A stretch of DNA of 64,000 nt from a candidate division WOR-3 bacterium. GTDB lineage: Bacteria > Hydrothermota > Tepidihabitantia > Tepidihabitantales > Tepidihabitantaceae. The stretch lies in the NCBI GenBank assembly GCA_965649205.1, contig CBFGJV010000001.1, positions 19,285 through 83,284 on the forward strand. The letters run 5' to 3'. Each line of letters begins with the position of its first letter. The first letter of the stretch is position 1. Below the pieces are notes generated by a model that searched no databases, was not told the DNA's origin, and saw only the letters and a program-made list of their open reading frames with translations. The position numbers and the translations under genes were made by a program. Shown here in pieces: positions 4,091 to 46,881 of the stretch.

Positions 4091-6901
4091 ATGACTAGAA
4101 AGTTCAAAATCAGAGATAGGAATTCAGAACTTTGGCCCGTGGTGTTGCTGTTCTTTGCGGTTTCGTCCGCTCTGGCGCAAACCGGGAGGATCCGGGGCAG
4201 GGTTACGGACGCTGAGACTGGTGAACCATTGGTGGGGGCCAATGTTATTATTCAAGGGACTCTCTTGGGTTCGGCCACAGATGCAAATGGCGAGTACCTG
4301 ATCAGCAACGTACCTGTGGGGAAACAGACGATAGAAGTTTCCTACATAGGGTATCAAACCTTGGTGCGCAAGGACGTGCTGGTAATACTCGACCAGACTA
4401 TTACTGAGGACTTCAAGTTGAAGCCCGGGGCGGCATTGCGTGTAGAGGAAGTGGTCGTAGCCGGCACGAGAGCGAAGATAGTGCGAACCGACCCGACTAC
4501 AAGCCGGTATATGACAACGGAAGAGTTTGACAAGATGCCGGTGCAGAGTTTGGCTGACATCGTCAGGCTTCAGGCGGGAATTGTTACCAGTCCGGCTTAT
4601 GGTCAGCACTTGCGCGGCGGCCGACCGGATGAGGTGGCTTACTTTGTTGACGGTGTGGCTACCCGCGACCCTCTATATGGCTATCAGGCGGCACAGGTGA
4701 ATCCAGAGGCAGCGGCTGAGGTGGTAGTAATTTCTGGCGGGTTTGACGCGGAGTATGGCGAGGCGATGTCAGGCGTGATACAGGTCATTACCAAGGAGGG
4801 TAAGCCGGTTACACAGGGCAGAGCTAAATATGTCACGGACGAAGTATTCCCCGGCCCCTTGAATTTTGGCGACAACCGCTATGAGGTATCAGTGGGTGGG
4901 CCATTTCCCGGTTTACGCAAATTGCGCTATTTTGTTTCGGGAGAGCTGTACTTCACAGATGACTACGCGCCTTGCCGGCACAAGCTTCCTCATCAACGTC
5001 GGCAGGACTATAACGCCACGGCGAAGTTGACCTATTCCTTGCCTTTGAATCAGGGGCTCAAGTTCACGGCCAGTGGACTTCTCTCGCGAGTACAATACGA
5101 AATGTATCCCAGCGACAGAGAAAGCGAGAATCATCTTGGGTTTAAGTACAACCTTGATCACTATCTTTCTCGTCGGGAGCGCGTAAGAACGCTTGACCTC
5201 TCGGCCAACCACATGCTTACGGAGAAGACCTTTTACACCGTGAGACTGGGTTATTTCTATAACCACCGTACGCAGGCGGTACGGGATCTGGAGCGGGAAG
5301 CCAAGGAGCGTAATTTTGCCGTACGCTTCTGGGAGGACTACATATTCAAGGCTGAGGATTCGGTGTTGGCTGACTCTGCGACTTTGTTCCGTCCCTTGCC
5401 CGGATATGAGGCCCAGACGAATGCCAATTCCAACAATCCCTGGGGCGTTTTCGGCTTATTCTACGGCAAGGGTGATTACCGACTGTTCCTTACTCACTGG
5501 TCGGATGTTGTAAACTTTTCGGGTAATATCACTCACAACATCGGTAAAGTGCACGAACTGAAAACCGGTATTGAGATAAAACGGAGTAACCTGCACCGGC
5601 GCTACAATTCCTTACCTACGGACTGGAACCCATTTGTGGATTACTATGACTTTCAGCCTACTAATGTGGCGGCTTTTGTGCAGGACCGTATGGACTTCGA
5701 GGACCTGGTGGTACGCGCAGGACTCAGACTGGATTATTTGGACCCGAATGCCTACAAGCGGTTTGACCCGACCAACATAGGCAATGACTCTATGATCCCA
5801 GCCAGTGTCAAATACAAGTTGTCGCCACGTCTGGGAATTTCCTTCCCCATAACCGTGCGCACCAAGTTCCGTTTCAGTTACGGCCATTTCTACCAGACCC
5901 CAGCTTACCGCTACCTGTATGACAATATATCGTCAGCTGCCTACAGCAGGGGTAACCAGATAATCGGCAACCCTGACCTGAAAGCGCAGCAGACGATTGC
6001 TTACGAGTTGGGCCTGGAGCAGCAGCTATCGGATGTTACTCTGGTCGATTTTACTGCCTACTATAAGGACATATTTGACCTGATGGGCACGCGTTTCCAG
6101 CCCGCTGTTCCTCTGGGTTACTTCCCGCTGGTAAACGAAGAATACGGCAGCGTGCGCGGCTTTGAGGTAGGTTTTGTGAAGTCCCTTGCTGACTACTGGA
6201 ATGGCAGGATTTCCTATGGACTTTCCGCAGCGCGGGGCACGGCTTCGTATACATACGAGTGGTACTATGAGCGGTATCGGTATGGCGTAGACCCGGTGAC
6301 AGGACAGGAAATGGAGCCGCCGCGTCGCGACTATGCGCTGGATTTTGATGAGACCCACAACGCCAAGTTGAGTCTGGGCTGCGATTTCCCCAAAGACTTT
6401 GCCTTTGCTCCGTTGCGGGAATTCACCGCCTCGGCTCTGGCTAACTTTGGGTCCGGTCTTCCTTATTCACCGCGCGAGGTGCGACGTCTGAATGCGGGAC
6501 GGCTCACGGCGGAGCGTAACTCGGCCCGCATGCCGCCTAGGTTCACCACAGACCTGAATCTGGGTAAGCATGTAACCCTCGGAGGAATACGTATCGGCCT
6601 TACCTGTGTCGTTACGAATCTTTTCAATGCCCGTGTGGTGCAATGGGTATACGGCGCAACCGGACTACCCAATGACGACGGATACATCTGGACCTATTCT
6701 CCGGCTAATTGGGCCAATACGCTAGATGCGACTCTGCTCTCTGGGACCTATCATCCGGCCCGAGACCGCAACCACGATGGCTACATTACGGACGAGGAAG
6801 AGTATGTGGCTTATCGTTGCGCTTATCTGGACTTTGTGGACAATCCGGTAAACTACGGGCCGCCAAGGCAGATAAAAGTTGGCATCAATATCGAGTTCTG
6901 A
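4091..6901 (+). CDS. TonB-dependent outer-membrane receptor, SusC/RagA-like, with N-terminal carboxypeptidase-regulatory-like domain
   Basis: ATG with GAGGAGG RBS and a signal peptide. CarbD_reg-like motif RGRVTDAETGEPLVGANVII...DANGEYLISNVPVGKQTIEVSYIGY. Plug region, a long beta-barrel, and a terminal aromatic residue (...GINIEF). Confidence 0.85.
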   Translation: MTRKFKIRDRNSELWPVVLLFFAVSSALAQTGRIRGRVTDAETGEPLVGANVIIQGTLLGSATDANGEYLISNVPVGKQTIEVSYIGYQTLVRKDVLVILDQTITEDFKLKPGAALRVEEVVVAGTRAKIVRTDPTTSRYMTTEEFDKMPVQSLADIVRLQAGIVTSPAYGQHLRGGRPDEVAYFVDGVATRDPLYGYQAAQVNPEAAAEVVVISGGFDAEYGEAMSGVIQVITKEGKPVTQGRAKYVTDEVFPGPLNFGDNRYEVSVGGPFPGLRKLRYFVSGELYFTDDYAPCRHKLPHQRRQDYNATAKLTYSLPLNQGLKFTASGLLSRVQYEMYPSDRESENHLGFKYNLDHYLSRRERVRTLDLSANHMLTEKTFYTVRLGYFYNHRTQAVRDLEREAKERNFAVRFWEDYIFKAEDSVLADSATLFRPLPGYEAQTNANSNNPWGVFGLFYGKGDYRLFLTHWSDVVNFSGNITHNIGKVHELKTGIEIKRSNLHRRYNSLPTDWNPFVDYYDFQPTNVAAFVQDRMDFEDLVVRAGLRLDYLDPNAYKRFDPTNIGNDSMIPASVKYKLSPRLGISFPITVRTKFRFSYGHFYQTPAYRYLYDNISSAAYSRGNQIIGNPDLKAQQTIAYELGLEQQLSDVTLVDFTAYYKDIFDLMGTRFQPAVPLGYFPLVNEEYGSVRGFEVGFVKSLADYWNGRISYGLSAARGTASYTYEWYYERYRYGVDPVTGQEMEPPRRDYALDFDETHNAKLSLGCDFPKDFAFAPLREFTASALANFGSGLPYSPREVRRLNAGRLTAERNSARMPPRFTTDLNLGKHVTLGGIRIGLTCVVTNLFNARVVQWVYGATGLPNDDGYIWTYSPANWANTLDATLLSGTYHPARDRNHDGYITDEEEYVAYRCAYLDFVDNPVNYGPPRQIKVGINIEF

Positions 6902-11027: not shown

Positions 11028-11098
11028 ACCAATCCGAACGCTTTATGACCAGCTCGGGATTCCCCGGGCCGGTCTCGTTTTATATGGCAACCGCACTT

Positions 11099-11273
11099 GT
11101 CGGTAGGTGAGATTCGGAATGTCAACTGCTACTGTCAAGCGTAAGAACAAAACTTCCCGACTACGTGGTGTCGGTAGGTGAGATTCGGAATGTCAACTGC
11201 TACTTGGCACGACTCGGCAAAGCATTGCAGGCAGTGGGTGTCGGTAGGTGAGATTCGGAATGTCAACTGCTAC
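11099..11273 (+). CRISPR. CRISPR mini-array: 3 direct repeats of 34 bp (GTCGGTAGGTGAGATTCGGAATGTCAACTGCTAC) separated by 2 spacers (37 and 36 bp)
   Basis: Identical repeats at 11099-11132, 11170-11203 and 11240-11273. Spacers are 11133-11169 and 11204-11239. The repeat starts 5'-GTCGG and ends ...CTAC like Cas12b repeats (e.g. Alicyclobacillus GTCGG...GGCAC). It is adjacent to cas2-cas1-cas4-cas12b. Confidence 0.85.
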
Positions 11274-13642: not shown

Positions 13643-16600
13643 CTACAGACCGGCCCACTCACGCAGGCGTTCAATAACCCGGAATTTCACCTTATTCCAG
13701 TACTCGATGGAGCTCTGCCAACTGTCGGATTCAATTGCTGCGGCTGACACATCGCGCCAGGCGTTGACCACGTCTTTGTCAACGGTTTCACTGAGTAGTT
13801 GCCCATTCAGGTCGAATGCCTTCGTACCCTTACACCTGTCCTTTGCCGGCTTGCCGTTCCTGCCGCAGGGGATCCACCACCACCTACCTGGCCAGTCCGG
13901 GTCCAGGAGCGCGCGCAGGCCGATGTTGGCGGCAGCATTGAGGTCGGCCTGGATGCCTTTGGACGCGGGCGAGTTTCTGTCCGCCGAGACGAAAAGTTCA
14001 CCTGAGCGGTCAAGAATCCGTACCAACTTTGTGTTGTCGGTGCAGCCGTCCCACTTCGCCTTGAGTGCTTCGAGGTACTCGTTTTCTGCTCCCGCGGCGT
14101 TTTTGACCAGCCGTTCGTAGCGCCTCAGGAATTCCGGCACAGGCAGGTCTGTGCATCTTGCGCCCGGCGCGCCGGTGCGGGAATCCTGCCGGGAGGTGTA
14201 ATTGGGTATTACTTGGCGGAGGTGCAGGCCATTCAATTCGCAGGCTTCTTTCAGATACCTGAGAACTTTTACCGCTGACCACTGCATCAATTGACGGTTC
14301 TCGCGGCGGGTGCGGATCTGCTCAGGTCGATAGGAATCCAGATTTTCAACCACAACGGCATGGCAGGGTTTAAAGCGAGGTTCGACGATTGGTTTCTGAG
14401 GCCGCTTACCCCCTTCCCAATGTTTCTTGTCTTCGGAACCGATGCCCAGCGCGGCTTCCACAATTCTGGAAGCCAGTTGTTTCACCCGGTTCTCGCGCAG
14501 ATGTTCTAGTGTATTAAGGACTCGCTGGCCGTAGTTATCCAATCGTATGTCCCCTTTTTCGGGTGTGTTTCTGCGAATGTCTTCCGGCTCCGGTCTTGTC
14601 GTGTACGCTTTCATGGCTTGCCACAATTCGCGGATGTTTGCGAGTCGGTCCAATGACAGGCCACCTACGTGTCGGATAGAGGCATCGGATTTCGGTCTGC
14701 CGCGGGGCAGTAGCCAGTTACGAAGCCAGCGAAGATGACCTTTCCATTGTTTGTCATCTTCGCGCCAACGTGTGGCCCAGATAGTGTGTAGCTTCATCCG
14801 TAACTGGGGATTGCCGGCTAGTTTCGCCGCATAGTCAGTCAGTAGTTTGCGAAGATTCCTATTGTAAGTCTTGAGGTCGGCTTGCGTTGCGTCTTCGCCT
14901 GGCGCGGGTGGAAGTTCCGCCTGCACGTATGTGTGCCACATTTCCTTGGCCCAGTCGTCGCGCCAGCGGGGGCTTTGGAACAGACTCTGCCAGAGTATCA
15001 GGGTGTCTTCTAGGAACTCTCGGCGCCTGTCCGAGGTCAATTCTTCCCAGCGGTCGCCTGGTAGCGGCTTCCGGTCGGTTTTCAGGTTAAAAGCAATTCG
15101 AGCTCGATCGCCATGGCGGCGAAGTCCGAGCCGGGCGGTGTGGACCGCATCAGCCATCAGGCTGACTATGTTGTGAGGCAGAGGGTTGTCTTTCGTTCGG
15201 ATGCGACCGAGCCAGGCTTCGAACTGCTGCACTGCTGCATATTCATCAGGCGATGCCTTCCGGCCGGTTTCATTTTCGCCCTGCAGTTTGATAAGGAATT
15301 GCCGGTCGAGTCTTGCCCACATATCCGGGCCGGTACGACGGTAAATTGTCCTAAGTCTCTTACCGTTTTGACTGAGGAGCAGATGCAGGGCAAGGTCACC
15401 GGGTTTCGGCGGCTTTCGCCCGGCCTCTACGCAGAGGCGGGTCATCTGCTCTTCGGTAAGGGTCTCCCAGACCGCACAGGCTGCCGCGTAGCGGTGGCCG
15501 AGGTCCAGTGATAGCACACGAAAGCCCGGGAATACGGCATAGCATAAGAGTGGCATGCCCTTTCCGTCCTTTATTGTCTTCAGCGTGCGGCCAGGCTTGC
15601 GGGTCCTCGTCCAGGTTGAGTCTGCGGGCCAAGGTTGCCCAAGGGCCGGCTTCCTGTGTCTGCAGGCGGCCAGAGAAGGTGATGAACCAGTTCAGGCCGT
15701 TGCGCATTTTAACAGCTTTTGCATCCCAGCCATGCTTCTGCACGCGTCTGGCTAGCCGGTCGAGCTGGGCGCGGGGCGCCTGCAGGCGGCCGTTCCAGTC
15801 CTTCTCGACGAATACATTTAGGACAAGCACAGCTGTTTCGCTGCCGATGCCGGCTGCGGCGCGGCTGAGTCGGTCGGCGCGGCTAACCCGGACACCATCC
15901 GGAGCCTGTTCTAACATTAGATCAGCAACAAGCCGCTTGGACTGCCAGAGCATTGCGGTTCTGCCAAGCGATGAGCCTGTTACGGTACGTAGCGTAAGCC
16001 GCCGGTCGGACAGGGCGGCGCGGAATCGCGCGCGGGCTTTTTCAAGTTGTTTCTGTGCCCTGAGTAGCTGGGTGGGCATTTTTTCACCAGTGGTTTCGCC
16101 ACAATACGCGAGAGACTGTTTTAATCCGTCCACTTTCAAAACCGCTTTCAGGCAGGAGTTCGCAGCTTTGTGTACGGCAAAAGAAATTGCCCAGCGAGAC
16201 TTGCCGTAGTCGCAGAACACCGGATGAGATAATGGATGAGGATGACGATAGGCCGGGACTTTGAAGCGGCGCATCTTCGCCTGGGCGTCGCGTGCGTTAA
16301 CATAGTCAAGGAGCGGCTGCGGGTCGGGTCTGCCGTTGCGCAACCAGACGATGCTGGCGCCTTCTGCAGACAATGCCTCGAACAGAGTTATGTCGCCGAA
16401 CTTCTCGATTTCGTCCTGCAGTTCTCTGGCCGCAGCCTTGCGGTCTTCGGCGGTGCGGCAGTCTCTTGCAGACCAGGCTTTCACAATTTCTTCCCAACTT
16501 TCTACCGCCCGGGGCTGAATTTGGAGCGGGCCGACCGCACCAGTCAGGCGGCCACGTTCTTCCAAGAATTCGTCCAGCCATTGTTCCACATCGGTCGGAA

Positions 16601-17816
16601 CCTGCTTTTGGGCCTGTTCCGCTAACTTCTGGCGGTTGGCTTCGGCCCGTTTTTGCCAGGAGTGGGCGGAGGAAACCCTCCTGAGTGCGAGATCCAGCAT
16701 TACCGAGTACTCGTCTGTCAGGTTCCGGCCACAGACAAAGGGTAGGCCGGTGGCTTTCTCGACGCGGGCGCGCAATGTCTCGGCCCATTTGGGCACGTTT
16801 CTAGCACCCTTTTTTATTTTCTCCATTTTCTCGTCGGCCTCGGCTGCCAGTTTGGCCTGCATAGTTGAGATCGTATCCGATGTTAGTACCGGCATGGCGT
16901 AAACTTTCTCAATAGCCAGTTTTCCCTGCGAGGGGCGACCTTTCCATCCGATGGCTTTGTAGATGCTGCTGAGCAAGTCTCCCTTTTCCGTCGCCTGAAG
17001 AAGTGTCAGAAGGTGGCTAGCCAAGGCAGAGCCGGACTGACCCTCGTAGTGGCTCAGGTCCGCAGTAGCAAGCGTGCGCAGCTTTTCTGCTATTCGCTCC
17101 AGGTCGCTTTTTTCTCCAGTTCCCCAACAGTTCACGATCCAGCTGCGAGCCTTCTCTCGAAATTTTGTTTCGTGCGCGGCCGCCGCGGTTGATCCGGATT
17201 CTGGTAGCTTGAGGAATTCGTCTAAGTCCCCAAATAACTCTCTAATCGCCGACTGCGCTTGTTCCCTGGTAAGGGTCTTATCGTTCTGCGCTTCCACGTC
17301 GAATGCCTTGGCGCGGTTGACCCAGACCGCGTCTTCTCGAATGGCGGCACAGAGCGAATCTTTGCAGTCGGCAACCCAGGTCTCGATTTCCTCCTTGGTC
17401 AGACCACGTGAGGCGAGAACTTCCTAGAGCGCGGCAACGATTTTGCACTTGCGGTCGGGCGCGGCGTCTTTGCCGGTGGCCACGATGTACTCGGCCGGAG
17501 CACCGTCGGCGGATTCAACCGAGAGCCAGGAAAGTGCGAGCATTATACGACGGTGACGAGTTTCTTGGTCGTCGGGACGGCGTTCGGTTTTCTTCTGGCC
17601 TTTTCCTTCGGTTACCGATAGCTCTGTAAGACGGTGGTCCAGACCACCGCGGAGGGTGAGGAGCCAGTCAGCGAAGACCTTGGTTCCCTTGTTGATTGTC
17701 TCGTGCGTACGCCATAGTGCCTCGCGCCAAGCCTCATCTTCGCTTCCTTCTCTGCCCGGTATGCCGCGCAGGCGCAGCGTGTAGGCCCGTTGGGTAATTG
17801 TCGCAGACGTCGTCAC
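13643..17816 (-). pseudogene. cas12b: cas12b (C2c1) type V-B effector, ~1390 codons, interrupted by an in-frame TAG (17424-17426) and a 1-nt frameshift near 15556-15563
   Basis: Three co-linear ORFs: 17816-17424, 17297-15396 and 15556-13643. The N-terminus LWRTHETINKGTKVFADWLLTLR resembles Cas12b LWKLHKEVNAGVRYYTEWLSLLR. RuvC-I is FRVLSLDLGHRYAAA, RuvC-II is AVVVENLDSYRP...RENRQLMQWS, and the Nuc/RuvC-III region is RCTDLP...WDGC...ADLNAAANIGLRAL; all three match Cas12b. The first and second ORFs share a frame, separated only by TAG. The second and third differ by +1, with the frames diverging at the homopolymer ccc/ttt (15558-15563). Confidence 0.85.
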
Positions 17817-17849
17817 CTCCTGTCGTTGCGCGGTATGCAGAAAGCTTAG

Positions 17850-18230
17850 GTGGGAAAATTGGATTTGTCAAGAGAGCGGCGGGAGGGTAGCAAGGTAGGC
17901 GGTTCGGGGAGCAGGAAGGGGATTACTCCACCAGGCGGCGGGCGGGGCGCATCAGAGGGCAGGAAGGATAGTAGGTCGCTGCATGGGAGAGTGGGCGGGT
18001 CGGTGAGGGACTCGGCGGGCGGGTGGGCTATTGGACGGGGGAGTTGCCGGGTCTGCGGCCGGGAGGACTACGGGGGATACGGACCGGTGGGCAGGTGGTG
18101 GAGTGGCTCAGGGAGCGGCGGAGCGGGCAGGAGACCGGGTTATCCGGAGAGCCACGGAGGGAGCCGCTGGGGGAGCTGGGGAGGGGGGTAACGGAGGATT
18201 TCAGGTATCAGATTGTGGTGCAAGGAGTTA
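17850..18230. repeat. G/A-rich, C-poor low-complexity tract (GGGNGGG, GGCGGGCGGG runs) in the divergent cas12b / HTH intergenic region
   Basis: The plus strand is dominated by G runs, i.e. the cas12b-sense strand is C-rich. The ORF-track protein here is Gly-rich nonsense. On the cas12b-sense strand the tract shares CCGCCCGCC/CCCACCC motifs with the 45.6-kb C-rich tract. Confidence 0.6.
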
Positions 18231-18255
18231 GGTCGCTAAGAAGCCTTGCGGACCG

Positions 18256-18273
18256 TAATACTAATGAGTATTA
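18256..18273. promoter_or_regulatory. near-palindromic operator TAATACTAATGAGTATTA 10 bp upstream of the XRE regulator start
   Basis: 9+9 inverted repeat with one mismatch. A perfect version, TAATACTCATGAGTATTA, recurs at 62189-62206. Confidence 0.6.
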
Positions 18274-18283
18274 TCAAGTCTGT

Positions 18284-18646
18284 ATGGGCCGCAGGTATGT
18301 GCAGGATTCTTTCTACTTCCCGCAGGCGCTGGGCGAGCGGCTGCGGGAGCTTAGGCTGCGGGCGGGCCTGACCCAGAAGGAGCTGGCAAGTATGGCCGGG
18401 CGGGAGTTTCGGGGCGGGCAGGCCATGGTGAGCAGGCTGGAAAGAGGCCGCATTCGGAGCCCTTCTTTGCGGTTGGTGGCGGATTTTCTGCGGGCCTGTC
18501 GAGCGAGTTTTGACGACATCCGCGATGTCCTGCACGCCTACACGGCGCAGCCATTGGTGGCGGAGAAGCGGGCAAGAAGGGCGGTGCAGAGACTGGTGGA
18601 GGTTTTGCCGGAGGGTGTGGCGGGAAGGTGGATAAGTACGATGTGA
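18284..18646 (+). CDS. XRE-family helix-turn-helix transcriptional regulator
   Basis: HTH_XRE signature LRELRLRAGLTQKELASMAG...VSRLERG. ATG at 18284. The upstream part of the ORF-track frame is G-rich non-coding. Confidence 0.75.
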   Translation: MGRRYVQDSFYFPQALGERLRELRLRAGLTQKELASMAGREFRGGQAMVSRLERGRIRSPSLRLVADFLRACRASFDDIRDVLHAYTAQPLVAEKRARRAVQRLVEVLPEGVAGRWISTM

Positions 18647-19425
18647 AGACGGCAGTGTGGCGTCGGCACCAGGGAGATTTGCCGGAGGCAGAGGCGGCAC
18701 GGTTGGAGAGAGTGAGGGGAATGGCTCAGCAGTTGCTTTTGCGGCAGAAGTTGGAGGAGAGGTTGCATATTGCCCTGAATCATATCGGCGCCAGGCGGGG
18801 CGGGCCGGCAAGAAAGGCGCTGGCCGATTTTGGTCGCAAGGTTTGGGCTATTTTGCGCCGAACGCGGGCGCAGCCAAAGAAGAGGGCGTACCTTTTGTCT
18901 GAGGCGGGCGAGAAGCTGAGGCAGGAACGGGTGGTGACAGACGAGGCCATACGTTATATCGAAACCGTGACGTGCGAGCTTTTTGCGGAGCTGGAGCAGA
19001 AGGGCGAGTTGGATCGCTTGCCGAGCGTAGAGGTCACAGAGGGGCTGCTGGCCAAAAGGGCGGGGGAGCGAGTTATGCGAGATGAGCAGATGTGCGCGGA
19101 GGAGTGGAGAAAGCAGTTGCGGGAGTACGAGCAGGCGCGGGAGCGAATGCTGAGACAGGTGCTGGACGAAGCGAGACCGTTGTTTGCGGAGAAGGGAAAG
19201 CAGGAGGAGGTATTCTATATTGGCGTGGTAAGAGGTTGTTTGTATGCGGCGCAACGGACGCGGGCGGGGAGTAAAGAGCGGGAGCAGGCAACAGAGGAAG
19301 CGTTGCAAGTGGTACGCAGGAAAGGGCTGGATGTAGAGTTGGCGCGACAGGTGGCCGAGTTTGCCTTGCGCAGGTTTGACGAGTTGCTGCGTTTTCTCCC
19401 GCCGAATCCCCGGACGCAGCTCTGA
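18628..19425 (+). CDS. hypothetical Arg/Glu-rich alpha-helical protein (265 aa), operonic with the HTH regulator
   Basis: GTG start overlapping the HTH gene end by 19 nt in another frame. Highly charged, coiled-coil-like composition with no recognisable motif. Confidence 0.45.
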   Translation: MDKYDVKTAVWRRHQGDLPEAEAARLERVRGMAQQLLLRQKLEERLHIALNHIGARRGGPARKALADFGRKVWAILRRTRAQPKKRAYLLSEAGEKLRQERVVTDEAIRYIETVTCELFAELEQKGELDRLPSVEVTEGLLAKRAGERVMRDEQMCAEEWRKQLREYEQARERMLRQVLDEARPLFAEKGKQEEVFYIGVVRGCLYAAQRTRAGSKEREQATEEALQVVRRKGLDVELARQVAEFALRRFDELLRFLPPNPRTQL

Positions 19426-21246: not shown

Positions 21247-22707
21247 ATGAGACCAAAGTTGAAGCTGCTTAGCGAGGGACTTGTTGAGCAGATTGTAGCC
21301 GAGGCACTGGACCTGCTGGCCGTGTTGGGAGTAGAAATAAACAACCCCGGGCTGGTTGAACTGCTGTTGGCCCAGGGCGCAGAATGGGATACCGAGAAGA
21401 AAAGGTTGCTGTTGCCCGAGTCCATGGTGAGGCAGGCTTTGGCTGCTGCTCCGTGTTCGTTCCGGTTGTATGATGTGCGAGGGGAGATGACAAATGAACT
21501 GGGGGGTGATAATGTGTATTTCACCCCGGGTTCTGCGGCGTTGAACATTCTGGATGCAGATACCGGCGAGATGAGACGACCACAGACGCGTGATTACGTG
21601 CAGTATGCCAAGCTGGTGTCGCGTTTAGAACACATTGCGGCCCAGTCCACAGCCCTGATACCGGCAGATGTGCCGGAGAAGATTTCGGACAGCTATCGGT
21701 TGTATCTGTCGTTGCTGTTCTGTGAGAAGCCGGTGGTTACCGGCTGTTTTACGATAGAGTCCTTTCGAGTAATGAAGGAAATGCAGGTGGCGGTGCGGGG
21801 TTCTGAAGAGGAGCTTGTCGCCCGGCCCCTGACCATTTTTTCCTGCTGTCCGACCGCGCCTCTGAAGTGGAGCGAGGTGACTTCGCAGAATGTGGTGGAT
21901 TGTGCGCGGGCCGGTATCCCGGTGGAGTTTATCTCCATGCCTTTGTCCGGCTTTGTGGCGCCTGTCACCCTGGTGGGCACTTTGATTCAGCATACGGCGG
22001 AGACCCTGTCGGGTGTGGTTATCAGTCAAACAGTCGCGCCGGGTTCGCCGATTCTTTATGGCGGTTCGCCGGCGATTTTTGATGTGCGCCGAGAAACTAC
22101 CCCGATGGGCGCCATAGAGACGATGATGATTGACTGTGCCAGTGCAGAAATAGGTAAGTACCTGGGTTTGCCCACGCAGGCTTACATCGGTCTTTCCGAC
22201 GCGAAGCTGCTGGACGCACAAGCCGGGCTGGAAACAGGCATCGGCGCAGTTCTGGCCGCCTTGGCAGGCGTGAACAGCGTGTCTGGTCCGGGCATGCTGG
22301 ATTTTGAGAGTTGTCAGAGTCTGGAGAAGCTGGTGCTGGATAATGAGATATGCGGCATGGCGCTGCGGCTGGTGCGGGGTATTGAGCCGCACGAGGACTT
22401 TCCGGCCTTGAATCTTTTCACCGAACTGTTGAGTGAGAAACATTTGCTTATCAGTCCGCATACCAGGCGCTGGCTGAAGACAGAGCACTACTTTCCCGGG
22501 CCGGTGATAGACCGGGCAAACAGAGGACGCTGGCAGGCTGCCGGTAGTCCTACTCTTTTGGCACGGGCGCGCCGGGAAAAGGAGCGCTTGATCGCCAGCT
22601 GGCAGCCGTCCCGTCTGGCAGAAGAGACAAAAAAGGAACTTACCCGGCTGATGACCACAGAGGCCCGGCGCTGGGGGATGGAACAGCTGCCAGAACTGCC
22701 CGCATGA
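21247..22707 (+). CDS. MttB-superfamily (non-pyrrolysine) quaternary-amine:corrinoid methyltransferase (MtgB/MtqB-like)
   Basis: 486 aa, the length and architecture of the trimethylamine methyltransferase family. Uninterrupted ORF with no in-frame amber codon. GGGAAAAATG RBS. Confidence 0.75.
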   Translation: MRPKLKLLSEGLVEQIVAEALDLLAVLGVEINNPGLVELLLAQGAEWDTEKKRLLLPESMVRQALAAAPCSFRLYDVRGEMTNELGGDNVYFTPGSAALNILDADTGEMRRPQTRDYVQYAKLVSRLEHIAAQSTALIPADVPEKISDSYRLYLSLLFCEKPVVTGCFTIESFRVMKEMQVAVRGSEEELVARPLTIFSCCPTAPLKWSEVTSQNVVDCARAGIPVEFISMPLSGFVAPVTLVGTLIQHTAETLSGVVISQTVAPGSPILYGGSPAIFDVRRETTPMGAIETMMIDCASAEIGKYLGLPTQAYIGLSDAKLLDAQAGLETGIGAVLAALAGVNSVSGPGMLDFESCQSLEKLVLDNEICGMALRLVRGIEPHEDFPALNLFTELLSEKHLLISPHTRRWLKTEHYFPGPVIDRANRGRWQAAGSPTLLARARREKERLIASWQPSRLAEETKKELTRLMTTEARRWGMEQLPELPA

Positions 22708-45045: not shown

Positions 45046-45190
45046 GGTTTTGGTCTCCAGTTCTCGAACCGTGCTTGATTTTTGCGTCTAAGAGAACCAA
45101 TCATGGTGAAAAAGGTGGAAGTAAGATACAGCAAAACCTTTATGCGTCAAGCCAGGAAAGACAAGAGGGCGGCGTGGAACCGCCCTCTGA

Positions 45191-45265
45191 TAGCCCCATG
45201 GGGATTTGAACCCCAGTCTTCTGGCTGAGAACCAGATGTCCTAGGCCGGACTAGACGATGGGGCC
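45191..45265 (-). tRNA. tRNA-Glu (anticodon CUC)
   Basis: The reverse complement gives GGCCCCATCGTCTAGTCCGGCCTAGGACATCTGGTTCTCAGCCAGAAGACTGGGGTTCAAATCCCCATGGGGCTA, a 75-nt cloverleaf. The 7-bp acceptor stem starts with a G-U pair. The anticodon loop is TTCTCAG (CUC). The D-arm resembles bacterial tRNA-Glu. No CCA is encoded. Confidence 0.9.
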
Positions 45266-45559
45266 ACAGACATTCGTCTATTGGCCAATAATAGCTTTGG
45301 AATTGAAGGTGTCAATGTCAAGGTTTTCGCTAGAAGCGCCAGCCAAGGCCCAGCGTAAGCTCCTGTCTCGGACTGGCGCGTTTCCTATGAGAGCTGCAGC
45401 GCCGGCAACTCGTCAGGGTCAGGCACAGGCAATGGGAAAATGCTCTTGCCCGCCTGCGGCACAACCCGCTTCAGTATCCCACGCCCTTTAGACTCTTGAT
45501 GTCGGTTCCTCTTGGTGTTTGCTAAAAAGCACTTGACCTTATTACCTACCAAAGTACCC

Positions 45560-45960
45560 GCGCCTACCGTTATGCGGCCAGACAGCTTCCTCAACTGCTC
45601 CCTGACCAGCCTGGCCGGCAACTCACAGACCGGCCTACTCAGCCGCCCGCCAAGCGACCAGCTAAGCCACTCACCCAGCCGCCCCTCTGACAACTCTCCC
45701 TCCCATTCTCCCTTCTGCCTGCCAACCTGCCCTCTAAACAGCTCTCCAGACCACCCACCAGCCAGCCTACTCCCCGACCCCCCTCCCGACCCGGCTAACT
45801 ACTCGCCAAACCACCCGCCTCACCGCCCGGTATTCTGCTCCCAGAACAACCCGCCAGACCGCCCACCCAGCAGTCTCCCCAGCGACCCCCCTACGAAAAA
45901 GCTTCACTTACAACACTGATCCGCCGCCCTTACAGCCGTACCGCCTCTCTACCGCACACA
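45560..45960. repeat. C/A-rich, G-depleted low-complexity tract with degenerate CCAGNCCGCCCACCCAGC-like units, inside a ~940-bp gene-free region
   Basis: The plus strand is almost devoid of G. Motifs CCGCCCGCC, CCCACCC and CTCCC recur. The only ORF here is a Pro-rich compositional artefact. Confidence 0.6.
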
Positions 45961-46209
45961 CATTTACGAAATTTCCTCCCCGCGGCATATAAAACTATAG
46001 AGGCGAAAAATGAAAAACATCCCCCTCCGGTCCGAAACCAGACAACTCCACGCCCGCATCCGCTCTTAGGAATACATAAATACGTCTTGCATGTTGGTGC
46101 TGAGAGACTACAATCTGGCGTGAGATGTGTTGGCAGGTTCCCGGCTCGGGGCAGAAAGAGCGGTACAAGAAGTTAAGGAACGTGCCCGGCTTTGCGTGAC
46201 GAGGTATAG

Positions 46210-46881
46210 ATGGCTCGGTCAGTGAAACTAGCCACGTCTGGGGGGTGGCGTTGCTTCTACTGCAACACATTTGTTAACAGAGAGATGGAAAAGTGTCCGA
46301 GCTGTGGGTGTGAGTTTGTTCAAACAGGCAGGGATGAGGGTGGGGTCAAAGAGCCTGAGGCCGAGAACTCGTCTGGCCGTTCTGTGCGCCTCCAGCAATC
46401 ATTTAGGGTTCGCAGACAGAGTTACACAATTCCTTTGATAGTACTGGCGATCTGCTCGTTCCTGCTGGCCGTTCTGCTCAGGCCAAAACCCCGCCATGGT
46501 GTACTTCTGTCTGAGCCAGGCACGCCTCGGCCAAGCTACAGGATTCTGGAAATGCGGCAGCTCCCTTTGCAAGGTATCAACAGGATTAGTTTAGTCGGGC
46601 TAGCGAGACCAGAGCTTCCCGATGAGAGCTTCAAAGCCGTGCTGGACTGGATGTTGTACAATACCCTATACAGCGAGAATCATCTGCGGCGCCAAGCCGT
46701 ACGAGTAGTATGGGCATATGTCCTTACCGATTCTCTCGCTCCCAGATCGCATTGGAGGGCTATGGCAATCTGGACGGATTCGTTACTACCCAAACCTCTG
46801 CGTCCGGCCGGAATCGGAGGCGATGCTATCAGGCAAGGCCAGGTTGAGTACGACGTTACCAATCCGCTGTTGCAACGCTAG
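46210..46881 (+). CDS. hypothetical membrane protein with N-terminal zinc-ribbon (CxxC..CxxC)
   Basis: CFYCNTFVNREMEKCPSCGC, one TM helix (IPLIVLAICSFLLAVLL), and a C-terminal domain of unknown function. Confidence 0.45.
   Translation: MARSVKLATSGGWRCFYCNTFVNREMEKCPSCGCEFVQTGRDEGGVKEPEAENSSGRSVRLQQSFRVRRQSYTIPLIVLAICSFLLAVLLRPKPRHGVLLSEPGTPRPSYRILEMRQLPLQGINRISLVGLARPELPDESFKAVLDWMLYNTLYSENHLRRQAVRVVWAYVLTDSLAPRSHWRAMAIWTDSLLPKPLRPAGIGGDAIRQGQVEYDVTNPLLQR

Follow-up and report, generated by a model that had tools for sequence, protein, structure and literature searches.

What is a tract of some 380 bp, half of it guanine on one strand, doing beside a cas12b gene of a candidate division WOR-3 bacterium? 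In this study, we address this question for positions 17850–18230 of a 64,000-nucleotide stretch of contig CBFGJV010000001.1 (hereafter, the window always means that whole stretch). A first-pass annotation had described the tract as the G-rich, C-depleted and G-quadruplex (G4)-prone upstream region of cas12b, and had considered that it might be a structured regulatory element (G4 or i-motif), a C-rich leader, or a degenerate repeat family. The last of these proposals is correct, and in a stronger form than was put forward: the tract, here called tract A, is a non-coding array of approximately 25–27 degenerate 12-nt units that all share a single register. The window contains a second array of this kind, and relatives occur in other genomes.

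The compositional part of the earlier description also holds. On the plus strand, the 381 nt comprise 73 A, 63 C, 189 G and 56 T (50% G, 17% C), giving a GC skew of +0.50, where all segments of that length across the 64 kb have a mean of 0.087 (standard deviation 0.114). This makes the tract the second most extreme 381-bp segment; the first, 45619–45999 (skew −0.56), coincides with the region of the other array, tract B. A generic bias of intergenic DNA does not account for the skew, as among the 12 intergenic gaps longer than 120 bp in the window only 17817–18286 (+0.45) and 45267–46209 (−0.27 overall) are skewed, the remainder lying between −0.03 and +0.19. An assembly artefact of low-complexity reads is likewise ruled out: the units all differ, and related arrays occur in independent assemblies. 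The strings quoted from the tract (GGCGGGCGGG, GGGAGGG, and the reverse complements CCCACCCGCCCGCCGAG and CCCCGCCCGCCGCC) are all found in it, together with approximately 14 GGAG motifs. In line with the predicted G4 propensity of the plus strand, five of the window's eight canonical plus-strand motifs lie inside tract A (canonical motifs at 17985–18027 and 18159–18188), as do three G4Hunter segments, including the top-scoring one (1.99); tract B holds two of the three canonical motifs of the minus strand. Both the 50% G content and the G-runs of tract A follow from its unit consensus, in which about half of the positions are G or purine. The tract does lie upstream of cas12b, whose start flanks it directly on one side, while on the other side stands an XRE-type helix-turn-helix (HTH) gene (ATG at 18284), followed by a corrinoid-protein/MtaA-like/MttB-family methyltransferase operon.

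The repeat structure emerged from self-comparison of tract A, the autocorrelation of which has peaks at lags 4, 8, 12, 24 and 36 and troughs at 6, 18 and 30. When the window was scanned for period-12 information, just two regions rose above threshold, tract A (score 6.2, with a window mean of 2.3 and a standard deviation of 0.67) and 45558–45918, and control periods 9–15 gave nothing comparable. The units of tract A run head-to-tail and are degenerate, with the consensus R-G-Y-n-G-n-n-S-G-G-n-G on the G-rich strand. Those of tract B, where the G-rich strand is the minus strand, follow G-G-Y-n-G-(T)-(T)-(T)-G-G-n-G; here position 5 is G, position 3 a pyrimidine and position 1 a purine in 26 of 26 units each, whereas positions 4, 6, 8 and 11 are near random. 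Compared after centring on composition, the units of tracts A and B have profiles correlated at r = 0.83, a value that none of 2000 shuffles reached (maximum 0.68). Further, when either tract is split into thirds and scored with the matrix of the other, all thirds settle on one register, with no shift over ~320 nt, and neither tract contains a register-breaking indel. Tandem Repeats Finder (TRF) reported nothing at tract A or tract B, being blind to the arrays because their units are too dissimilar. The two tracts share with minisatellites, or variable number tandem repeats, their constant-length head-to-tail units, the register being held over 25–27 of them, and depart from that class in that the units are not alike enough for TRF and do not look neutral, with position-specific conservation and no indels.

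To place the arrays beyond the window, we turned to related DNA. Among named homologues, those most similar to the Cas12b and EtfB of the window reside in candidate division WOR-3 metagenome-assembled genomes, the nearest EtfB being only 70% identical. A metagenome scan seeded with EtfB supplied approximately 0.77 Mb, in which arrays were scored after correction for codon periodicity and around 15 further period-12 arrays stand out. Broken down by period, there are 17 strong segments at 12, and 24, 11 and 14 at its harmonics 4, 8 and 24, respectively; the control periods 9, 10, 11, 13, 15, 17, 19, 22, 23, 25–27 and 29 yield 0–1 segments each. Thus, among periods 9–30, only 12 is enriched, apart from harmonics and a separate 7-nt class. 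Members of the family are scattered between genes of WOR-3-type bacteria, whether these genes diverge, converge or stand in tandem; the arrays have 19–28 units (mode 24) and lengths of ~290–325 nt, and most of them share with tracts A and B the purine/pyrimidine skeleton R-R-Y-n-R-Y-Y-..-R. One intergenic array, L122, comes from a complete WOR-3 genome (CP070680.1) and stands in matching register ~50 bp upstream of a TTGACA-17-GATAAT promoter; its units are RGCTGTCTGSCA, and tract B itself contains AGCTGTCTGGCC. This array is young, since TRF describes it with a period of 24, 10.8 copies and 92% matches, and its units (GGCTGTCTGCCA and similar) keep the 12-nt register without any G3 run. In L130, two 24-unit arrays (4668–4955 and 4967–5254) are separated by 12 nt and have the consensuses AGGGTGAATCTn and GYnCTGYGTCGn.

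Orthologous arrays of one subfamily (units RRYSGYTCnGGn) were found in four related genomes, in each case right after the flpD stop codon. Their alignment spans 288 columns and is free of gaps even though roughly half of those columns vary, and the substitutions have no 3-nt periodicity (p = 0.27 and 0.68). Starting at that stop codon, their C-rich strand continues in the sense direction of the gene that closes the etf-hdr-flpD operon, and no intrinsic terminator was found at these arrays on either strand. Degenerate 7-nt arrays (CAGAAGY, GAACCCC) occur in relatives (L133 10760–10940, L130 7430–7650, L180 7480–7620), where they sit in the etfB-etfA spacer and beside a 12-nt array; period 7/14/21 is the only other enriched class. 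In the window etfB and etfA overlap, leaving no spacer with a 7-nt array there. Directly upstream of etfB in L196 (9709–10000) lies a purine-rich spacer of ~290 nt, its sense strand nearly free of C, in which CGGAGTG is repeated with no 12-nt register, and similar skew peaks occur just upstream of etfB in L162, L194, L169 and L173, all from more distant lineages. These observations hint that spacers depleted of C on the sense strand are widespread ahead of etfB. On the IMG/VR viral contigs L210, L285, L241, L273 and L224 we also saw 12-nt arrays of moderate degeneracy, whose units are near those of the family (GGCTGCGGAGTC, AGCTGTGAGGCG, GGCAGCTCGGGG). The loose pattern (RGYNG N7) x7 gave at least 120 matches in a genome collection, those listed being Gly-rich coding repeats and exact tandem repeats of unrelated high-GC genomes; for a similar loose pattern on viral contigs, the matches listed were mostly near-identical 12-nt tandem repeats.

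As to function, we tentatively favour a strand-specific, multivalent landing track that would offer ~12 nt to each subunit of a bound factor. Our candidate for this factor is Rho, whose binding we infer by analogy with its known loading (rut) sites. Rho is the sole well-documented factor with a ~12-nt step on an unstructured C-rich strand. A length of 12–13 nt of RNA is needed to span its neighbouring primary-site clefts, and the best predictors of rut sites are a C>G skew and YC at regular spacing (PMC6144790); a rut site has also been described as a 78-nt C>G stretch with one C per 11–13 nt (PMC6407284). Where C is expected to exceed G over at least 70–80 nt, minus-strand RNA of tract A has 171 C and 59 G in 324 nt (C/G 2.9), and the plus strand of tract B 157 C and 49 G (C/G 3.2). 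The C-strand RNA has little secondary structure (z = −0.9 relative to shuffles), and YC recurs regularly: chains of six YC at exactly 12 nt number seven in tract A (0.6 expected) and three in tract B (0.2 expected), while spacings of 9–11 and 13–15 gave one such chain in tract A (at 13) and none in tract B. Leftward transcription over tract A, possibly from divergent or antisense initiation around the HTH/methyltransferase promoter, would yield a very C-rich RNA (53% C, 18% G), unstructured and with a YC every 12 nt, which would amount to some four to five idealised rut sites in series. Rho could load on this RNA and halt transcription before the promoter-like site of cas12b. Tract B might do likewise for rightward transcription, which would be stopped before the promoter-like site of ORF46210 and the extracytoplasmic function (ECF) sigma genes, and in relatives the arrays after flpD would terminate the etfBA-hdrA-flpD operon.

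Several observations weigh against this assignment to Rho. Transcription of either strand is itself something that we infer. In length, the array exceeds a single rut site about fourfold. With its tolerance for linkers of 9–13 nt, Rho has no evident need for a strict 12-nt register, nor for a 4-nt sub-period, a set size of ~24 units or a conserved purine in every unit of the C strand. The C>G skew is clear in tracts A and B, L143 and the flpD-downstream orthologs, and weak or absent in L122, L180, L181 and L140; L122 has 31% G and 28% C and yet keeps the period, as do L180 and L181, and in L122 it is the G-rich strand, not the C-rich one, that is sense to both neighbouring genes. Among ~11 independent arrays there is no significant rule of orientation to the neighbouring genes. 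Finally, conservation within arrays and between orthologs is related in the expected direction, but weakly (rho = −0.36, p = 0.25).

A functionless origin is a further candidate: a minisatellite of 12 nt (3 × 4 nt) could have expanded by slippage in a repeat-prone lineage and now be decaying. The young, 92%-identical version in L122 would suit such an origin, as would the 7-nt arrays of the same related genomes, the lack of a clear orientation rule, and the near-identical 12-nt tandem repeats fitting a loose pattern that are common in viral and other genomes among the matches listed. Decay is argued against by the coexistence of invariant and random positions within one array, since in tract B a uniform process cannot give positions conserved in 26 of 26 units beside random ones; by the stable register, with no shift in tracts A and B and no gap among four orthologs in which half of the columns are substituted; and by the tight distribution of sizes (19–28 units), to which the specific enrichment of period 12 can be added. 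We consider neutral decay unlikely. The array is likely under selection, which, judged from the patterns of conservation in these sequences, seems to act on the register and on a few positions of the unit rather than on the whole sequence. What is selected might also be duplex DNA, recognised as a track of 12-bp iterons that would be bound cooperatively, so that ~300 bp become coated as a nucleoprotein filament or solenoid and wall off neighbouring transcription units by topological or promoter insulation, or else serve as a platform for regulation. Iteron tracks with a 12-bp unit exist (tubC), and filaments or solenoids have precedents in ParR on parC, TubR on tubC and omega on heptads. Consistent with such a track, the arrays are contiguous direct repeats of fixed length with few conserved positions and degeneracy at the purine/pyrimidine level; their size is narrow, L130 having two adjacent modules of 24 units with different unit sequences; divergent, convergent and tandem regions host them alike; and tracts A and B and L122 lie upstream of predicted promoters, not within leaders. 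We nevertheless regard a duplex track as doubtful. The strong strand asymmetry of tracts A and B (G 50% versus C 17%) is needless for duplex recognition, and the variation of unit sequence between arrays would require many proteins or a very loose specificity. No partition, replication or obvious cognate DNA-binding gene consistently accompanies the arrays, the neighbours of tracts A and B being cas12b, the XRE HTH gene, tRNA-Glu, a zinc-ribbon ORF (open reading frame) and an ECF sigma factor, with no partition or replication gene adjacent. A spacing of 12 bp is also out of phase with the 10.5-bp helix, on which ground DNA curvature was dropped as a candidate.

The G-rich strand could instead be the active one, as RNA. 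It would then form a long, untranslated spacer or leader, C-depleted and Shine-Dalgarno-like (GGAG-rich), that runs in the direction of the operon downstream (HTH/methyltransferase in the case of tract A, tRNA-Glu/etfBA in that of tract B). Its G-rich, C-poor composition would make it resistant to Rho, and as a sponge or standby track it could recruit an RNA-binding protein or ribosomes. The GGAG motifs of tract A fit this idea, as does the 290-nt spacer with repeated CGGAGTG, rich in purines and poor in C, that immediately precedes etfB in the more distant lineage L196. Five arrays (B, L143, L130, L180 and L135) stand in sense orientation less than ~2 kb upstream of etfB, and the gene 3′ of the G-rich strand is read in the same sense as that strand in 8 of 11 independent arrays, although that count is non-significant (p ~0.11). 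Better promoter candidates (HTH, tRNA-Glu, L122 gene), however, lie downstream of the arrays; promoter and terminator scans found no promoter/terminator pair for an independent RNA gene at the tract; and in the four flpD orthologs the G strand is antisense to the operon. Neither strand folds better than its shuffles (G strand, z = −0.16; C strand, z = −0.91, minimum free energy −69 kcal/mol for 332 nt), and Rfam gave no match at gathering thresholds and only chance-level ones at E ≤ 10. An RNA role of the G strand is thus decidedly unlikely. Highly improbable, in our estimate, is the structural element suggested by the first-pass annotation, with a G4 on the plus strand or an i-motif on the cas12b-sense strand regulating the divergent promoter region. 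The G4-prone runs in tract A are real, with four or more runs of at least three G and short loops, and the concentration of motifs described above favours such a structure. Most of each array lacks a run of four G3 tracts, G-runs are not conserved, and the features that are conserved are single positions in a 12-nt frame. Because related arrays such as L122 keep their register without G3 runs, formation of a G4 or i-motif is unlikely to be the conserved feature. Barely conceivable is a gene or pseudogene for a tetrapeptide-repeat protein (12 nt being four codons). Long open frames do run over arrays (45512–45919, 135 aa; L130, 111 and 120 aa; one C-strand frame in three orthologs) and have a loose hydrophobic-small-x-Arg/Gly rhythm, but a skewed composition by itself makes stop-free frames likely. 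Tract A has stops in all six frames, and the ORFs over the tract, which had been called Gly-rich artefacts, have no Pfam match; the variable unit positions (4, 6, 7, 8 and 11) are not spaced every third base, and the ortholog substitutions lack codon periodicity. The tract is neither coding, nor a structured RNA, nor a member of an Rfam family. Other candidates were tried and dropped: tandem sigma-54 promoters, as GG-N10-GC fits units of L122 but in tract B just a single pair of them; the 12-mers of RfaH ops-like elements and of the Neisseria DNA-uptake sequence, to which the units bear a likeness by eye with nothing in support; and clusters of Chi sites, as tracts A and B face opposite ways relative to the replication skew.

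Features around the two tracts are collected in Table 1. Both tracts fill divergent intergenic regions, and the G-rich strand of each points into the 27-kb interval between them. This arrangement made us consider them as inverted ends of a mobile element of that length, which we rejected, since what lies between them is normal chromosomal DNA (methyltransferases, TonB/ExbB, proteases, mfd, etf/hdr).

Table 1. Arrays and neighbouring features in the window. The candidate promoters of cas12b, the XRE-type HTH gene and ORF 46210–46881 were read from the sequence and are putative.
Feature	Position	Strand	Remarks
Tract A	17874–18197	+	27 in-phase 12-nt units; 25 under strict extension (17888–18187)
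Tract B	45576–45887	−	26 in-phase units, inverted relative to tract A and ~27 kb away
Candidate sigma-70-like promoter of cas12b, TTGACA-17-TAAGCT	17843–17871	−	Abuts left edge of tract A; below promoter-scan threshold
First cas12b ORF, N-terminal 130 aa	17424–17816	−	51% identity to residues 11–136 of a relative's Cas12b N-part, E = 2e-37
Further cas12b ORFs	17297–15396 and 15556–13643	−	C-part (15556–13643) with C2c1 RuvC-like domain
Candidate promoter of XRE-type HTH gene, TTGCGG-17-TATTAT	18246–18274	+	Absent from promoter-scan output
tRNA-Glu(CTC)	45189–45266	−	ARAGORN and Rfam; co-oriented with G-rich strand of tract B
tRNA-Glu own promoter, TTGACA-16-TATTAT	45315–45288	−	11/12 matches
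Candidate promoter for ORF 46210–46881 and downstream ECF sigma/anti-sigma genes, TTGCAT-16-TACAAT	46087–46114	+	Far side of tract B

Two related cas12b loci (L203 and L204) have no 12-nt array upstream, their upstream regions being short and ordinary; the tract is hence not a feature of cas12b loci. The idea of a C-rich cas12b leader is doubtful for this reason, and because the best promoter-like site lies between tract and gene, which would place the tract upstream of the promoter and outside the leader. A tracrRNA or CRISPR leader was rejected on the same comparison and because the CRISPR remnant is elsewhere: at 11098–11273 (period 70, 2.5 copies), beyond cas1 and cas4 and on the side of the V-B locus opposite to the tract, this remnant is the true array of the locus. 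The cas12b gene itself is split in the window (13643–17816, minus strand), the two more upstream ORFs of Table 1 making up the N-part and the third the RuvC C-part. A two-gene layout equal to this is found in the relative L204 (573–5071), where products of 843 aa and 619 aa are followed by a cas4/cas1 fusion and cas2; the break is at the equivalent place, the C-part of L204 aligning from residue 109 of the window ORF, and most Cas12b homologues found are N-parts of 750–980 aa. A two-piece Cas12b or a programmed frameshift may, on this comparison, be a feature of the clade rather than a pseudogene, and the extra break at 17297–17424 may be a true frameshift or an assembly error.

On the other side of tract A, the XRE-type gene has HTH_31/HTH_3 domains in ORF 18023–18646. 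A perfect inverted repeat, TAATACT-aatg-AGTATTA (18256–18273), overlaps the −10-like TATTAT and ends 10 nt before the ATG; by its position it is likely to be the autoregulatory operator of a leaderless or near-leaderless HTH gene. A 265-aa ORF (18628–19425, plus strand) adjoins the tract region, has a G-skew like that of the tract (0.42–0.47) and overlaps the end of the HTH ORF (18284–18646) in another frame. Among 5.8 billion proteins its only homologue was itself, and that search yielded no orthologous locus of tract A; the ORF may be an orphan gene, or a frameshift may join it to the HTH ORF. Further downstream, the Rfam family PYLIS_3 (pyrrolysine insertion sequence, mttB) matches 22192–22291 on the plus strand, just over the gathering score. 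It falls within an MttB-family gene (21247–22707) that lacks an in-frame stop codon; a relic of such a sequence in a non-Pyl MttB homologue, or a chance hit there, is the probable explanation.

Searching the literature for intergenic tandem repeats of 12 bp turned up nothing relevant, and we know of no description of phase-locked degenerate 12-nt arrays. It is possible, if speculative, that WOR-3-type and some other FCB-group bacteria use a previously undescribed class of intergenic punctuation element, of ~24–27 phase-locked 12-nt (3 × 4 nt) units and present about once per 50 kb, on each of which a factor particular to the lineage, which need not be Rho, would build a defined, strand-specific nucleoprotein particle or filament in place of hairpin terminators or insulators. 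If functional, such elements would constitute a new form of bacterial genome punctuation, whose information would be carried by a strictly kept 12-nt register and by a few positions rather than by sequence or fold, and which for that reason would go unseen by repeat finders, RNA-family searches and gene callers. If the factor is Rho, the array would represent a natural, repeated 'ideal' loading site acting as a one-way insulator; if it is not, the array would be a handle for an unknown periodic nucleic-acid-binding factor of an uncultured phylum. For CRISPR work, the practical consequence is that the tract, not being a regulatory element of cas12b, should not be taken for a leader or tracrRNA region.

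Known systems resemble these arrays in part, and for CsrB-type sponges, parC/tubC iteron arrays and TRAP/HutP-type tracks the likeness is one of logic only. Sponge RNAs of the CsrB/RsmZ type are similar in length (~350 nt) and in carrying ~20 copies of a short G-rich motif. Those RNAs are defined transcripts, each made from its own promoter up to its own terminator, and expose the motifs in hairpin loops; in the tract, fold signal, Rfam match and transcript boundaries were not found. Iteron and centromere arrays (parC of R1, tubC of pBtoxis, omega heptads) are also contiguous direct repeats, of 7–12 bp, and nucleate a cooperative protein filament. They consist of 4–10 near-identical units next to partition or replication genes on plasmids; the present arrays are chromosomal, highly degenerate and strand-asymmetric, have ~25 units and lie near no such genes. 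Repetitive extragenic palindromic (REP) elements and bacterial interspersed mosaic elements (BIMEs) likewise occur in many copies per genome, exclusively in intergenic DNA, and may mark the boundaries of transcription units, but REP elements are hairpin-forming palindromes of ~35 bp, and the array units are tandem, non-palindromic and without pairing potential.

A further comparison is with the binding tracks of ring-shaped RNA-binding proteins. TRAP binds 11 (G/U)AG repeats of the trp leader and HutP binds UAG repeats; in both, as in the arrays, a short conserved core recurs at a constant distance, the bases in between are free to vary and secondary structure is absent, one unit serving one subunit of the oligomer. 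Those tracks have 6–11 units at a spacing of 5–7 nt in one specific leader, in contrast to 19–28 units at 12 nt, in many copies per genome and in every intergenic context. With rut sites, the C-rich strand of the tract shares a C content far above that of G (ratio ~3), the absence of stable RNA structure and YC at 12 nt. Natural rut sites are diverse, extend over ~70–80 nt and are not visibly repetitive. The tract, in contrast, is a tandem array of 300 nt that holds a strict register, shows a 4-nt sub-period, conserves one purine in each unit and has a fixed number of copies, and some of its relatives lack the C>G skew. At the level of sequence, the tract agrees with every rut descriptor that we tested, and what would set it apart from any rut site described is its form as a long tandem array.

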